64,000 nucleotides of DNA from Candidatus Woesearchaeota archaeon (GTDB taxonomy: Archaea; Nanobdellota; Nanobdellia; SCGC-AAA011-G17; PNOQ01): positions 117 through 64,116 of the forward strand of contig JABJPM010000030.1 in the NCBI GenBank assembly GCA_018663865.1, given 5' to 3'. The notes under the pieces were generated by a model. The model searched no databases and had not been told where the DNA came from. It saw nothing but the letters and a program-made list of their open reading frames with translations. This document shows positions 14,857 through 64,000 of the stretch, piece by piece. Made by a program: the position numbers and the translations under genes. Within the stretch, counting starts at the first letter, position 1; the number at the start of each line of letters is the position of its first letter.

Positions 14857-15140
14857 AGGGTAGGCTAGACTGGGCGGTTAGCTCTCGCTTGTTATCGCAA
14901 ATGAGCTATATGGTGAAGTCGAATGCCTGATTGAGGCTTTAATCTTTATTATTGGTCTCAACTTGGACGTTGATCCTTTGTCTCATGGGATCGTTGTTTT
15001 TGGGAATCAAGTCAGATCCGGAAGGAAGCAGCTTTTACCTTAAATATCGATGCTTGTGAATCGCAGAGAGGAGGAAAAGTTGAGGTCAACCCAATAATAT
15101 CGTTTATTGTCGATTTCAGGATGCCTGCATTTTAGTTACA
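14857..15140 (+). ncRNA. ffs: Signal recognition particle RNA (7S/SRP RNA); ends approximate
   Basis: Contains 'UCAGAUCCGGAAGGAAGCAGC', matching the universally conserved SRP RNA helix-8 motif. It lies in a roughly 290-nt GC-rich ORF-free island. Confidence 0.75.
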
Positions 15141-59169: not shown

Positions 59170-59769
59170 TTAATAGTCCCCTAAATTTTTTTGAGCTTCT
59201 GCCTTCGCAATTCGCTTATATGTTGCCCAAGTTTGCCTGAATAATTCTGGATGTTTTTTCCAATTCGCCTTTAGAAATGCTTGAGTAATTGGGTTTGCCG
59301 GATAACCTGGCCCTGTTTCGCCGTAGATTTTCCTTAATTTATCAATTTCTGCATCTCTTGTAACTTTTGCTAAGATAGACGCCGCACCAGGTTCTATGTA
59401 GTTTAAATCTGCTTTGTGTTCAGTCACGAATTTCACATTTTTATCTTCAACTCTTTCTTTTACAAATTCCTCATATGATTGAATATTTGTTGAAGGGCAA
59501 TCTAATATTGCTTTTTCTGGTTTTAACTCGTTAATTATTTGTGCAGTTGCGACCCCTTCTAATTTATTTAAGTTTGAATCTGGAGAATTTAATGCATTAT
59601 CAATCTCCTGAGGAGATAAAATTATAATTTTGTATGAAGTGACTATTTTTTTAATAACTTCAAACATATCTTCTCTTTTTGCAGGAGGAATTAATTTTGA
59701 GTCTTTAACGCCCATATTTCTTAATTGTTCTGCTTGTTCTGGAGTTACCACTACACCAGCCATAACCAT
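59170..59769 (-). CDS. rnhB: RNase HII, C-terminal roughly 90% (lacks the N-terminal catalytic GIDEAG block in this frame)
   Basis: 'MVMAGVVV...DSKLI...' continues a canonical RNase HII. The upstream in-frame sequence reads ...TAGGPVLGPMVMAGVVV immediately after a TGA. Confidence 0.8.
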   Translation of the reverse strand: MVMAGVVVTPEQAEQLRNMGVKDSKLIPPAKREDMFEVIKKIVTSYKIIILSPQEIDNALNSPDSNLNKLEGVATAQIINELKPEKAILDCPSTNIQSYEEFVKERVEDKNVKFVTEHKADLNYIEPGAASILAKVTRDAEIDKLRKIYGETGPGYPANPITQAFLKANWKKHPELFRQTWATYKRIAKAEAQKNLGDY

Positions 59770-59813
59770 TGGACCAAGGACAGGACCCCCTGCGGTGAGA
59801 AAAACTAGTTGCT

Positions 59814-60848
59814 TTACTCATTTCCGGCTTCGTCGATGCCACAAGTCAATGATTTTCCTTTTTCAGTTTTATTCCATTCCGTATCCATTTGTTTTACCAA
59901 TTCCTCTTTTTTTAACAATCTTAGTTTTTTTCTGATTGTTTTTCTTGGAATGTTTGTATCTCTCGATAAATCGCATATCTTTTTAAATTTATCTAGGGAA
60001 GTTAAAATTACTTTTTTATCATTTAATAAGATTTCTGTTATTATTTTTTTCTTGGCCCAAACGGTTTTATTTTTTATTTTCATATAACTTATCTTTTTTT
60101 CTGTTTTTAATTCTCTTAAAACATCTAATATTCTTGCTGGAGATCTATTAAATTTTTTAGATAATTCGAGTGTTCTAGTTGGTTTTATTAAAGTTTTTTC
60201 TATATTTTTTTTAAGAAATCCTTTTGAGTAGTGTGGTTCTTTTAAACTATTGATCATTCTTGCAAATTTAAATTGTTTTTCTGGATGTAATTCGGCAATG
60301 TTTAATTTATTTGTTTTTTCTAGTTGACAACCATATATCCAATAGTTTCTGTCTTGTGATTCGAATGTATGTTCTATATTAAAATGATTCAGAATATTTT
60401 CTAATATTATATATCTTTTTGATTGAGATATTCTTATACTTCTTGAATTATTATTTTTTGGATTGTGTTTAATATTGCCTTCCCCTGCAAAAAACCCTCT
60501 CAATATTCTCGAATAATTTATTTTTTCTTTTAATGTTTTGTTTACTATACTTTTCCATTCCTTTACGAAATTCACATCTGCTAGTCTATAAATATAATAT
60601 GTCTTTTTTGCTCTAATGTCTTGATAATATCTTATTTTTATATTTCCTATTTTATTGAAAAGTTTTCTTTTTGATGGGGAATATACATAAATTCTTGGTT
60701 TATTGTCTCCGGTATATATCGAATTAATTGTTTCATGAAAAAATAATATTAATTCTATGCAGTTATTTGTAAATGTTATTTCAGAAATTGTTTTATTGTC
60801 TCCTTCTGCTAACCATAATCCAACGCATTCTGATATTTGTTTATTCAT
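59814..60848 (-). CDS. LAGLIDADG homing-endonuclease-like ORF with HTH-like C-terminal region, ending in the RNase HII N-terminal catalytic motif (...SLTCGIDEAGNE*)
   Basis: Two LAGLIDADG-type motifs ('CVGLWLAEGD' at residues 8-17, 'GFFAGEGN' about 108 aa later); K-rich wHTH-like segment; last 8 residues GIDEAG = RNase HII motif I. Confidence 0.6.
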   Translation of the reverse strand: MNKQISECVGLWLAEGDNKTISEITFTNNCIELILFFHETINSIYTGDNKPRIYVYSPSKRKLFNKIGNIKIRYYQDIRAKKTYYIYRLADVNFVKEWKSIVNKTLKEKINYSRILRGFFAGEGNIKHNPKNNNSRSIRISQSKRYIILENILNHFNIEHTFESQDRNYWIYGCQLEKTNKLNIAELHPEKQFKFARMINSLKEPHYSKGFLKKNIEKTLIKPTRTLELSKKFNRSPARILDVLRELKTEKKISYMKIKNKTVWAKKKIITEILLNDKKVILTSLDKFKKICDLSRDTNIPRKTIRKKLRLLKKEELVKQMDTEWNKTEKGKSLTCGIDEAGNE

Positions 60849-62025: not shown

Positions 62026-62100
62026 TAGAATTATTTTAATTTTTTGTTTTAAATATGTTTTGGAAAGTTTTAAAAGTAAGTTTATGATTTAATTTCTTAT

Positions 62101-62184
62101 GCCGAGATCGCATAGCCTGGTTATTGCACTGGATTGCTAATCCAGGTCCTTTGGGACTCCTGGGTTCAAATCCCAGTCTCGGCG
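62101..62184 (+). tRNA. tRNA-Ser (anticodon GCT), type II
   Basis: GCCGAGATCGCATAGCCTGGTT...anticodon loop TTGCTAA...long variable arm...GGTTCAAATCCCAGTCTCGGCG. Confidence 0.85.
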
Positions 62185-62253
62185 TATTCCTTATTAAGCA
62201 AAAGCCCTTAAAGCTATAGAACATTTTATAAATAATAATTTCTTTTTATTATT

Positions 62254-62718
62254 ATGAAATTATATTCAATCTTATTACTATTAGCTTTAACTATTTTTAT
62301 TAGTTCTTGTTCTGGAAATATCAGTTCTCAACAAATTGGATGTGACCCTACTGAAGATCAGTTTTATTTAGTAGAAAATATTGGATATACAATTGATAGT
62401 GATTCTGATGCTTTGGAAGCGTTTAAAGAATATTCTTGTTCTTATGATGATGAAGGAGGTAGTTTTGGAATGACAGATTGTATTAGAAATAATATGGCTG
62501 TTGATGAAGCCATTGGAAGCATTATAAGAAAATATGATTCAATAACTTTAAAAGATGGTTCTTTAATAGATTCTGTTTGGGTATTGTGGAGTAATCAAGC
62601 TTTCGATAAGGAAGGAAATTTTTATTATTGTGAACATATTTCAATCAATGATGGACCAGGACAATTTTGTGATGAAACTGGATGCTCTCCTTTACCAGAA
62701 GGGAAACAACCTGAATAA
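62254..62718 (+). CDS. Lipoprotein (154 aa)
   Basis: 'LLLLALTIFISSCSGNIS' lipobox. Confidence 0.55.
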   Translation: MKLYSILLLLALTIFISSCSGNISSQQIGCDPTEDQFYLVENIGYTIDSDSDALEAFKEYSCSYDDEGGSFGMTDCIRNNMAVDEAIGSIIRKYDSITLKDGSLIDSVWVLWSNQAFDKEGNFYYCEHISINDGPGQFCDETGCSPLPEGKQPE

Positions 62719-62770
62719 TAAATAATAGGAGGAAAAACTAAGAAACAATAGTTTTTGCTTAATAGGCCTT

Positions 62771-62788
62771 CAGCCCAGTCTCGGCGTT
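62771..62788 (+). repeat. Duplicate of the tRNA-Ser 3' end (CCCAGTCTCGGCGT), att-site-like
   Basis: 14-nt exact match to 62171-62185, 600 bp downstream of the tRNA. Confidence 0.6.
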
Positions 62789-62827
62789 TTTATTTTATTG
62801 AAAATGTTAGAATTGAAATAGAGTAAT

Positions 62828-63850
62828 TTATTTTAATCTTGATTTTATTTCTTCAACTAATTTTGGATTTATGTAAAAATTCATAGTCATTGTTGGATTA
62901 TTTTTCCAAACATGATCTTTTTTAACATATTTTTTGTGTCCTAATTTTGCAGCTATATTTGTGTATAGCTCATTAACTTCTTGTTTTGTTGGAGATTTAT
63001 TTTTATTTAAAAAGTTTTGAGTTGTTTTTGTTGCATAATAAGATCTTACTATATGTGGATAAAATTCTTTTCCACAATATTGTTTGAATGCTTTTTTGAA
63101 ATGCATATCTGAATAAGGGTGATTTGTATTTGGATTGACAAATATAAAATCATGATCTTTTTTATTGTTCATCCTTTGTTTTAATTGTTTAATATATTCT
63201 TTAGGAAATTCATTTGATAATTCTAATGGTACTCCATCTTTTGCTTTGTATTTGAATGTTACATTATTTTTATTTATTGTTATATCTTTTTTCTTTAATG
63301 TTGATAATCCTTTGTGTTTATGAGTTTTATAATAAATTTCACTTCCAACTCGCATGTATGTTTTTAATAATGTATACATTGGTAAAGCAATATCTTCTTT
63401 TGTTAAGGATTTTTGAATATTTATTTTTAGTTTAGAATAATATTTTTCAAATTCTTTCTCTGTGTTGTATTTTTTTGTTTTTGCCCTTTCTTTTTTTTCT
63501 AGGGTGTAAACATATGAATATGTGTTTGATGGATTTTTATAAATTACATCCCAATGTGCATTCGATGATTCGTCATGAATTGTTAGGTCTTTTGCAAAAA
63601 GAGAATATGCCTTGTCAAGTTTTTCATTATTGGGTAGCATGTTTATTCTTGCACCCTGTGGTTTTTCATTAAATTGCCCTTTCAAGAAAGTATTATCTTT
63701 TTTGTCTATTAAGACTTTGAAATTATTGTGATCTTTGAATAATTGAATTACTTTCATTGCATTTGGAAATTGACTTTTTGATTTTTTCCAAGAAGTTTTT
63801 GTTTTTTCATACACTTGAAGATCTTCTGTTTTGATTCTGTATGTTTTCAT
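62828..63850 (-). CDS. Tyrosine-recombinase / type IB topoisomerase-fold protein
   Basis: Box-II-like 'YPHIVRSYYATK' (HxxR...AT) followed by 'KLGH'; 340 aa; adjacent to the tRNA-Ser 3'-end duplication. Confidence 0.45.
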   Translation of the reverse strand: MKTYRIKTEDLQVYEKTKTSWKKSKSQFPNAMKVIQLFKDHNNFKVLIDKKDNTFLKGQFNEKPQGARINMLPNNEKLDKAYSLFAKDLTIHDESSNAHWDVIYKNPSNTYSYVYTLEKKERAKTKKYNTEKEFEKYYSKLKINIQKSLTKEDIALPMYTLLKTYMRVGSEIYYKTHKHKGLSTLKKKDITINKNNVTFKYKAKDGVPLELSNEFPKEYIKQLKQRMNNKKDHDFIFVNPNTNHPYSDMHFKKAFKQYCGKEFYPHIVRSYYATKTTQNFLNKNKSPTKQEVNELYTNIAAKLGHKKYVKKDHVWKNNPTMTMNFYINPKLVEEIKSRLK

Positions 63851-63959
63851 TATGTTTATTTTGGTTTATTTTATTAAAAAGGTTTGTTTTTTTGACCAAT
63901 ATATATATATATATGTATATTTTTATTATGATTATATATTAAAGGAGAGTGATAATAAA

Positions 63960-64000
63960 TGAAAAAAATAATGTTTGGAATTTTATTTTTGGCTGTGATT
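63960..64000 (+). CDS. Cys-rich lipoprotein family copy 3 (5' end only; cut by window end)
   Basis: 'MKKIMFGILFLAVI' and upstream RBS/(TA)n region identical to copy 1. Confidence 0.5.

Follow-up and report, generated by a model that had tools for sequence, protein, structure and literature searches.

A probable att-flanked lipoprotein-gene cassette at the tRNA-Ser(GCT) 3' end of a Woesearchaeota archaeon

The stretch of DNA analysed here (64,000 nucleotides of contig JABJPM010000030.1, from a Candidatus Woesearchaeota archaeon; hereafter the window) contains an intact tRNA-Ser(GCT) gene whose 3' end lies within a 14-nt sequence, CCCAGTCTCGGCGT, that recurs 602 nt downstream, beyond one lipoprotein-like gene and shortly before a minus-strand open reading frame (ORF) of 340 aa. 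This arrangement raises the question of whether foreign DNA was integrated at the tRNA gene and, if so, which kind of recombinase was involved. An earlier, sequence-only reading of this DNA took the two 14-mers for an attL/attR pair and the 340-aa ORF for the candidate recombinase. The first of these ideas is borne out by empty sites in relatives and by integrase elements that occupy the same 14-mer in sister strains, and the second is not. The two 14-mers are probably the attL and attR of a ~0.6-kb integrase-less cassette that entered the 3' end of tRNA-Ser(GCT) by site-specific recombination, most likely through the action of a tyrosine integrase.

The repeated tRNA end and the empty sites of relatives

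The window has the composition of an AT-rich archaeal genome (~30% GC) and includes an archaeal signal recognition particle RNA at 14858-15130; its contig recurs in the Woesearchaeota-type metagenome-assembled genome (MAG) GCA_018692575.1 and in several marine metagenomes. All cross-genome comparisons described below were made with metagenome assemblies, and labels such as L011, L027, L106 or L108 denote related loci or contigs compared with the window.

Exactly two copies of CCCAGTCTCGGCGT, hereafter the core, were found in the 64 kb, even when up to 2 mismatches were allowed. The exact recurrence noted in the earlier reading is therefore real, although the second copy lies at 62774-62787 and not at 62771-62785 as first reported, a slip of 2-3 nt. 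The first copy spans the 3' strand of the T-stem, the 3' strand of the acceptor stem, the discriminator G and one further base of the tRNA-Ser(GCT) gene, the boundaries of which were set at 62100-62185 by ARAGORN and at 62101-62184 by Rfam. The two copies thus form a direct repeat that corresponds exactly to the end of the intact tRNA gene and encloses foreign DNA, as att pairs do, and no duplicated 3' end was detected for any of the 5 other tRNAs in the window. In 100 dinucleotide-preserving shuffles of the window, a mean of 0.05 matches to the core was obtained and no shuffle held two copies, in agreement with the earlier judgement that a chance repeat is unlikely. No third copy with up to 3 mismatches was found outside the window, where L011 covers ~10 kb further; syntenic housekeeping genes occupy that region, and the suggestion that the element reaches past the window end has been abandoned.

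The search for an empty tRNA-Ser site, which the earlier reading had recommended, was successful in four relatives, in which the 3' end of tRNA-Ser(GCT) directly abuts the stop codon of the gene corresponding to the 340-aa ORF, a type IB topoisomerase (TopIB) gene discussed below. These are L027 (TopIB 85% identical), L023/L028 (79%), L163 (70%, with a compensated acceptor stem) and L079 (56%). The T-run located 3' of the tRNA in the empty-site genomes matches the sequence that follows the second core copy in the window, and in silico excision of the insert makes the window align to the empty sites. The window therefore carries an insertion of ~0.6 kb with one lipoprotein-like gene, and the comparison indicates that the convergent tRNA-Ser/TopIB pair is ancestral and that the window gained the additional DNA. 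The distribution of the cassette is patchy, since it is present in the window, L108 and L155 and its site is empty in L027, L028 and L163, a pattern that, as judged from these assemblies, would need repeated gain or precise loss.

Even where no repeats are detectable, the DNA between tRNA-Ser and TopIB is variable (L024 7033-11886; L026 8176-10595). It contains a gene for a 1617-aa Peptidase_S8/FG-GAP protein in L024/L025; L026 has genes of 477, 212 and 82 aa there, and L157/L158 have an ORF of 82 aa.

The cassette, its relatives and their putative recombination sites

The inserted unit of ~0.6 kb comprises positions 62186-62773 plus the duplicated core (Table 1). On the coding strand, this unit holds no ORF of at least 40 aa besides the 154-aa cargo gene, within which a 40-aa ORF runs antisense, so the earlier statement that the copies bracket a single lipoprotein gene stands. 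The cargo protein, whose N-terminus reads MKLYSILLLLALTIFISSCSG, showed no Pfam or NCBIfam match, and a word-indexed search with it recovered its own 99% cluster only. Among 1.8 billion representatives, 15 weak homologues were detected, and the best of them (45% identity) is itself encoded in a cassette flanked by tRNA-Val. Just inside the direct repeats lies a 14-nt inverted repeat missed in the earlier reading, with CTTATTAAGCAAAA at 62190-62203 and TTTTGCTTAATAGG at 62753-62766.

Tyrosine integrase genes were found on the same core in sister strains only. In the sister-strain contig L106, a tRNA-Ser(TGA) gene ending in the same 14-mer is followed by a gene for a 391-aa tyrosine integrase (PF00589, 6.9e-24; motifs RxxxE...HxLRHxR...Y) and then by genes for a PF27228 replication helicase, whose homologues are frequently fused to PrimPol, small ORFs, and genes for CAP, NUDIX, methyltransferase and permease proteins; the second core copy lies 8.95 kb downstream, and the direct repeat there is 18 nt long. 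This ~9-kb element is also present in L026 (99.7% identical), with another right flank and near TopIB. A 3.7-kb element with an integrase 90% identical to that of L106 was found in L109/L137. A metagenome scan with the L106 integrase yielded 47 loci, and in 15 of these a same-strand tRNA gene was detected within 350 nt upstream (Ser, Thr, Lys, Glu, Asp or Leu). This count is a minimum, since tRNAs with introns escape ARAGORN. Among viral contigs, integrase relatives were limited to one weak, uninformative match.

The cassette itself belongs to a family with conserved ends and exchanged cargo. In L108, the closest relative (Na_Ca_ex 90% identical in nucleotides), tRNA-Ser(GCT) and the core are followed by an identical 21-nt left end, ATTCCTTATTAAGCAAAAGCC, a gene for a 176-aa GNAT protein (Acetyltransf_3, 2e-23) in place of the lipoprotein gene, a conserved right end of ~55 nt and a second core. 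Directly after it comes the ~9-kb integrase element; beyond this lie a third core, a segment of 1.6 kb that holds a TrmB-family gene, and the fourth core, which has 1 mismatch. In L155 (TopIB 79%), the same right end plus core abuts TopIB. In L109/L137, tRNA-Ser and the 3.7-kb integrase element precede the core; a cassette left end (19/21) follows the core, then an OmdA-family gene and a right end that is truncated, so the cassette is found on either side of an integrase element. Thus, three unrelated cargos (lipoprotein, GNAT and OmdA-family) lie within the same 21-nt left and ~55-nt right ends. Since the ends are kept across species while the cargo is swapped, the option of a minimal integrative cassette, one of two raised in the sequence-only reading, fits better than could be known from the window itself.

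Two further observations concern these elements. L106 and L108 share their integrase element and right flank but differ in the tRNA-Ser isoacceptor gene joined to the left (TGA and GCT), and so do L109 and L137 (GGA and GCT); these joins may be integrase-mediated rearrangements between att sites or assembly chimeras at the shared 26-nt tRNA end. At tRNA-Val(GAC), L159 (2900-4060) contains a tandem array of two cassettes, with copies of the tRNA-Val 3' end as its boundaries, which consists of the tRNA, a gene for a 203-aa homologue of the cargo lipoprotein (45%), a copy of CCTTGGGACCA, an 82-aa membrane ORF and a further copy. L160 (250-1350) contains the same array with an orphan copy upstream in place of the tRNA, and array content therefore differs between strains.

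When the right end, core and left end of the window cassette are joined, they form a ~53-bp attP-like site, TTTTGCTTAATAGG-CCTTCA-GCCCAG-T-CTCGGC-GTATTC-CTTATTAAGCAAAA, which is an exact dyad of 14+12+1+12+14. The best dyad centre falls on core position 6.0 (T6) in the cassettes of the window and L108 and in the ~9-kb, 3.7-kb and 1.6-kb elements, with arm matches of 13/14, 15/15, 9/11 (outer arms, plus a 10/14 inner palindrome), 12/14 and 9/11, respectively. The arm sequences differ between element types. Among pseudo-attP sites assembled from randomly chosen window positions, ~0.2% had arms of the quality seen in the window. No dyad symmetry was found at the tRNA-Val cassettes of L159, and the dyad rule is therefore established for the tRNA-Ser core only.

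The window cassette is best read as a non-autonomous att-flanked cassette similar to a cis-mobilizable element (CIME), in which attL and attR are kept and genes for integration and transfer are lacking. On insertion, it would have brought a copy of the last 13 tRNA nucleotides plus one further base, so that the tRNA stays intact, and the original tRNA 3' end with its T-run would have been pushed 602 nt downstream. Its payload would consist of a putative TATA-like promoter, one 154-aa lipoprotein-like ORFan and the short conserved ends. The cassette has no recombinase of its own and would move in trans, or jointly with a neighbour, through a tRNA-Ser-specific integrase of the kind that sister strains encode on the 3.7-kb and ~9-kb elements at the same core, with the crossover probably around T6; on this reading, it may still be mobile today. 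The predicted empty-site junction (attB) is ...GGGTTCAAATCCCAGTCTCGGCGTTTTTATTTTATTG, and the predicted excised circular junction (attP) is TTTTGCTTAATAGGCCTTCAGCCCAGTCTCGGCGTATTCCTTATTAAGCAAAA.

Several observations weigh against this explanation. The element has no integrase gene, and neither an integrase homologue nor the other proteins of the integrase elements were detected by tblastn in the 64-kb window. The cassette arms are unlike those of the integrase elements seen here, and no autonomous element with CCTTATTAAGCAAAA arms was found among the loci compared. Where the same element adjoins different tRNA-Ser genes (L106/L108, L109/L137), assembly chimeras may be involved. Between the orphan core and the TopIB stop, the window holds ~38 nt that are lacking in the empty sites and resemble the right flank in L026; the right junction is therefore not that of a perfect one-step insertion. 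Furthermore, the excised attP junction was absent from IMG/VR viral contigs and, with flexible spacers allowed, also from JGI metagenome contigs. Finally, every contig of the window species that spans both junctions carries the cassette, which therefore looks fixed. A search of viral contigs with the 18-mer AAATCCCAGTCTCGGCGT returned one match, which lies on an unrelated GC-rich contig and was judged to be due to chance.

Table 1. Coordinates of the cassette, its proposed target and the adjoining gene in the window
Feature	Position	Strand	Evidence or remark
tRNA-Ser(GCT), intact; proposed integration target with attB in its 3' end	62101..62184	+	Rfam RF00005, 55.5 bits
Probable attL core copy CCCAGTCTCGGCGT; tRNA positions ~61-73 plus 1 nt	62172..62185	+	Putative dyad centre T at 62177
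Conserved left end ATTCCTTATTAAGCAAAAGCC	62186..62206	+	Holds inverted-repeat arm 62190-62203; 21/21 in L108, 19/21 in L109/L137
TATA-like TTTTATAAAT, ~25 nt upstream of cargo ATG; putative cassette promoter	62224..62233	+	Sequence reading only
Cargo gene, 154-aa secreted lipoprotein-like protein	62254..62718	+	Signal peptide and ISSC lipobox-like motif
Conserved right end AATAGGAGGAAAAACTAAGAA...TAGTTTTTGCTTAATAGGCCTTCAG	62714..62773	+	Holds inverted-repeat arm 62753-62766; 88% identical to L108 1273-1330; also beside TopIB in L155
Probable attR core copy, orphan tRNA 3' fragment	62774..62787	+	Putative dyad centre T at 62779
T-run TTTTATTTTATT (original downstream flank of the tRNA) and ~38 nt missing from empty-site relatives	62788..62827	.	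Like L026 right flank
Type IB topoisomerase, resident chromosomal gene, bystander outside the element	62828..63850	-	

The topoisomerase gene and the alternative explanations

The 340-aa minus-strand ORF does contain the HIVRSYYAT...KLGH pattern to which the earlier reading had drawn attention. Judging from its Pfam match, modelled fold, catalytic residues and synteny, it is a conserved type IB topoisomerase of DPANN archaea. The profile search that had been proposed gave PF01028 Topoisom_I with an E value of 2.5e-18 over residues 120-313 (66.7 bits, where the cut-off is 23.7) and no Pfam match to PF00589 Phage_integrase at E<=1. The PDB sequence matches were 6z01, 2f4q, 2h7f and 1a41, which are archaeal, bacterial and poxviral TopIBs. 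Residues R167, K204, R269, H305 and Y326 are invariant in 13 TopIB sequences with identities as low as 59%. In alignments, R167 and K204 correspond to the IRFG and GKDKV motifs of the variola enzyme and R269 to FRTY of 6z01, and we take H305 and Y326 to be catalytic from their motif position (LGH...NFYINP) and from the features of the family. In the AlphaFold model, the catalytic half (~130-340) shows block means of the predicted local distance difference test (pLDDT) mostly of ~85-95, and the N-terminal ~110 residues are poorly modelled. In a Foldseek comparison with the PDB, the best 21 matches were all TopIBs (E 1e-10 to 7e-8), and the XerH recombinase appeared only at ~1e-4.

A search for the family gave 560 homologues. 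The best 120 of them share ~50-60% identity and are mostly full length (~350 aa); they are encoded in MAGs of Woesearchaeota, Aenigmarchaeota and Nanoarchaeota, on contigs that reach 1.4 Mb. In relatives, the gene belongs to a syntenic block with small ORFs and genes for a TP_methylase, a PF1765-like protein, a 156-aa protein and a protein similar to threonyl-tRNA synthetase (ThrRS). Its convergent adjacency to tRNA-Ser is kept in relatives without any insertion, as is the synteny on its 5' side. Consequently, the gene is the ancestral convergent neighbour of tRNA-Ser and not part of the element; a topoisomerase IB with conserved synteny, the outcome that spoke against the recombinase of the earlier reading, is what was found. 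The protein shares its catalytic core, its Arg-Lys-Arg-His-Tyr set and its fold with the TopIBs of poxviruses and bacteria (~310-350 aa) and of Thaumarchaeota/Caldiarchaeum (2h7f, 2f4q/3m4a, 6z01). It is similar in size to the short viral and bacterial enzymes, yet it is encoded by a conserved chromosomal gene of DPANN archaea. A review of archaeal topoisomerases gives TopIB for Thaumarchaeota only and none for DPANN (PMC8185306). A false lead is thus removed, and a conserved housekeeping-type topoisomerase of DPANN archaea, from a family that seems to be barely discussed in the literature, takes its place.

As a separate observation, the same-population contig L013 (6620-7358) departs from the window sequence inside TopIB (window 63199 onward) into a Peptidase_S74 (tail-fibre chaperone) gene, which may point to structural variation, to the insertion of a virus or to a chimera.

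Four other explanations of the locus were weighed. The repeats could be the attL and attR of a formerly larger integrative element from which deletion removed the integrase and almost all the rest and which is now fixed and immobile, the conserved ends reflecting common descent and the cargo differences later replacement. We consider this somewhat unlikely. Such a fossil would agree with the presence of the cassette in all contigs of the species, with the failure to find attP or attB variants, with the lack of an integrase in the window and with the extra 38 nt at the right junction, and the truncated right end in L137 shows that decay occurs. However, three unrelated single-gene cargos between the same 21-nt and ~55-nt ends are difficult to reconcile with it, as these ends are too short for easy homologous replacement. 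In addition, patchy presence with precise empty sites among close relatives needs site-specific excision or insertion anyway, and the inverted-repeat arms of L108 are perfect (15/15). At the other extreme, the second copy might be a chance repeat or a conserved terminator or processing motif resembling a tRNA end. A T-run does follow it, but none of the 100 shuffles held two copies, the empty-site relatives have the tRNA copy alone with the T-run directly after the tRNA, and extra copies always coincide with boundaries of inserted DNA; this explanation, including the conserved terminator that the earlier reading had named as a refuting outcome, has practically negligible probability.

The 14-bp direct repeat could also be a target-site duplication created by staggered cleavage and repair, with a miniature transposon bounded by terminal inverted repeats (TIRs), for instance a non-autonomous casposon, inserted beside the tRNA. 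Casposons produce duplications of 14-15 bp and favour tRNA 3' regions (PMC5137440), inverted repeats lie near both ends of the cassette, and a second small lipoprotein gene beside TopIB is likewise accompanied by an imperfect ~19-nt direct repeat. Nevertheless, this explanation is very improbable. The inverted repeats do not abut the 14-bp repeat, being offset from it by 4 nt on the left and 7 nt on the right, which makes them asymmetric as TIRs, whereas they are exactly symmetric (12/12 nt) about a base within the core. Moreover, in Aciduliprofundum boonei the casposon duplication, which the TIRs adjoin directly, shares only 5 bp with the tRNA (PMC5137440), whereas the repeat studied here falls almost entirely within the tRNA. 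The length of the repeat varies (14 and 18 nt), as is the case for att identity blocks, and a tyrosine integrase is encoded by the larger elements on the same core, with no Cas1 or PolB among their called genes in a search limited to these elements. The TIR and target-site duplication model was consequently rejected. Even less probable is that the TopIB-fold protein itself acted as the recombinase, which was the proposal of the earlier reading; it would have done so either as a tyrosine-recombinase-like integrase or through topoisomerase-mediated illegitimate recombination. TopIBs and tyrosine recombinases do share a catalytic fold, as the XerH match (E ~1e-4) illustrates, some homologues carry a weak precomputed PF00589 flag, and the gene adjoins attR. 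However, the protein scores above the Topoisom_I cut-off without a Phage_integrase match and its 21 best fold matches are TopIBs; the gene lies outside the repeats, next to tRNA-Ser in four relatives that have no insertion, and is not found near the same-core cassettes and integrase elements of L108 and L137. The 560 homologues, the best 120 of them mostly full length, from DPANN archaea and on contigs of up to 1.4 Mb, also speak for a resident gene.

Related systems and neighbouring loci

The closest parallel to the att-flanked cassette is provided by bacterial CIMEs and by the accretion of elements in tandem at tRNA or tmRNA genes, as described for the integrative and conjugative elements (ICEs), integrative and mobilizable elements (IMEs) and CIMEs of Streptococcus (PMC5704250) and for the ssrA islands of Dehalococcoides (PMC3146451). 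Shared features are an attL and attR derived from the 3' end of an RNA gene, the lack of an integrase, tandem arrays with integrase-bearing elements on the same site, orphan repeats that mark islands, and content that varies between strains. In contrast, the window cassette resides in a DPANN archaeon, measures 0.6 kb with a single gene, and keeps its ends across species while its cargo is exchanged. Its ends also differ from those of the co-resident integrase elements, and it is therefore not recognizable as a deletion derivative of them.

Among the archaeal plasmids and viruses that integrate into tRNA genes, those with an integrase gene that remains intact are of the pNOB8 type, in contrast to the SSV type. 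The elements of L106, L108 and L137 share with the pNOB8 type an intact tyrosine integrase beside attL, a core of 14-18 nt from the tRNA 3' end and the plasmid-type PF27228 helicase, whereas the window holds a non-autonomous cassette only. The hosts also differ, being marine Woesearchaeota, for which the literature searched gave no description of integrative elements of this kind. With casposons (PMC5137440), the locus shares a direct repeat of 14-15 bp, an association with tRNA 3' ends and nearby inverted repeats, but it differs in the offset and asymmetric position of these repeats, in a duplicated segment that lies inside the tRNA, in the tyrosine integrases on the same core and in the absence of Cas1 and PolB from the called genes of the elements on that core.

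Integron cassettes, including those of archaeal integrons (PMC9668308), may be regarded as a looser analogue than CIMEs and tandem accretion. They have in common with the cassette described here promoter-proximal arrays of mostly single-gene units with unrelated cargo and an imperfect inverted-repeat recombination site in which the arm sequence is variable and the geometry conserved. However, neither IntI nor attI accompanies the window cassette, its docking site is a tRNA 3' end, and one of its arms (GCTTAAT...ATTAAGC) lies at each end of the cassette, with the tRNA-derived, putative crossover core between them; an integron cassette has a complete attC (R''/L''...L'/R') at its 3' end, where crossover takes place in GTTRRRY of R'. 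The interpretation as an integron attC was rejected on this architecture, with split arms and no intI nearby, a judgement made without an attC covariance model. A broader, integron-like shuffling in Woesearchaeota appears unlikely but can be formulated: tRNA 3' ends (Ser, and Val in L159/L160) would dock arrays of single-gene cassettes, and tRNA-specific tyrosine integrases encoded on plasmid-like elements would act in trans. Such integrases would recognize the geometry of the dyad around a fixed crossover base, with variable arms located 11-19 nt from T6, and not the arm sequence. Such a mode of recognition, if true, would be akin to that of attC sites, which is based on structure.

DPANN archaea, whose genomes are very small, depend on surface contact with host cells, and how they gain and exchange genes for surface proteins is poorly known. 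The locus offers a testable att site, with a 14-nt core and a putative crossover around one defined base, together with a candidate integrase family and natural cassettes with exchangeable cargo (lipoprotein, GNAT and OmdA-family). If the cassettes are still mobile, they would constitute a simple site-specific gene-delivery system in uncultivated archaea and a possible starting point for genetic tools.

Beyond the 340-aa ORF, the sequence-only reading had correctly noted another lipoprotein gene with a conserved leader, which starts at 63960 with MKKIMFGILFLAVIMISSCS. This gene (150 aa) sits between TopIB and a conserved gene for a 153-aa membrane protein and is missing in L021 and L155. It is flanked by the imperfect ~19-nt direct repeat TATTTT(T/AA)ATTATGATTATA, which duplicates the start of the 153-aa gene (window 63920-63936, gene 63960-64000; L011 4405-4421, 4444-4896 and 4950-4966). 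It may be another small-gene insertion, with no tRNA involved, and since its repeat is AT-only, chance is harder to exclude in this case.

The target tRNA shows a polymorphism of its own, as the anticodon stem of tRNA-Ser(GCT) may or may not be interrupted on its 5' strand by 32-35 additional nucleotides, at a non-canonical intron position that corresponds to window 62132/62133. The insertion is carried by near-identical strains and relatives (L013 5525-5554, L108 601-718, L027 11077-11111; also L018 and L157) and is missing from the window, L011, L017 and L019; tRNA-Ser genes containing it escape ARAGORN unless the intron mode is on. Free-standing ORFs of the LAGLIDADG type adjoin tRNA genes in this lineage, beside tRNA-Ser in L027 (11163-11792) and between tRNA-Met and RNase HII in the window (59814-60848). 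A location of the LAGLIDADG gene within the tRNA-Ser intron of L027 was considered and rejected, as the intron is only ~35 nt long and the ORF lies upstream of the tRNA.

The RNase HII gene of the window (59170-59769) is severed from its own first codons (...TCGIDEAG, with the catalytic DEAG) by a 32-nt insertion bearing a stop codon, located on the minus strand at 59791-59822, between ORF 59814-60848 and RNase HII. The severed codons now form the C-terminus of the upstream 344-aa ORF, which combines LAGLIDADG and helix-turn-helix features, and deletion of exactly 32 nt restores DEAG-GGPVLGPM as in relatives (DEAGRGPVLGPM). In the minimum-energy fold of the 32-nt interruption, no bulge-helix-bulge was present (z-score 0.07). 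The interruption recurs in the independent assemblies L006, L013, L014 and L017, and it may represent an mRNA intron, a recoding site or a pseudogene.

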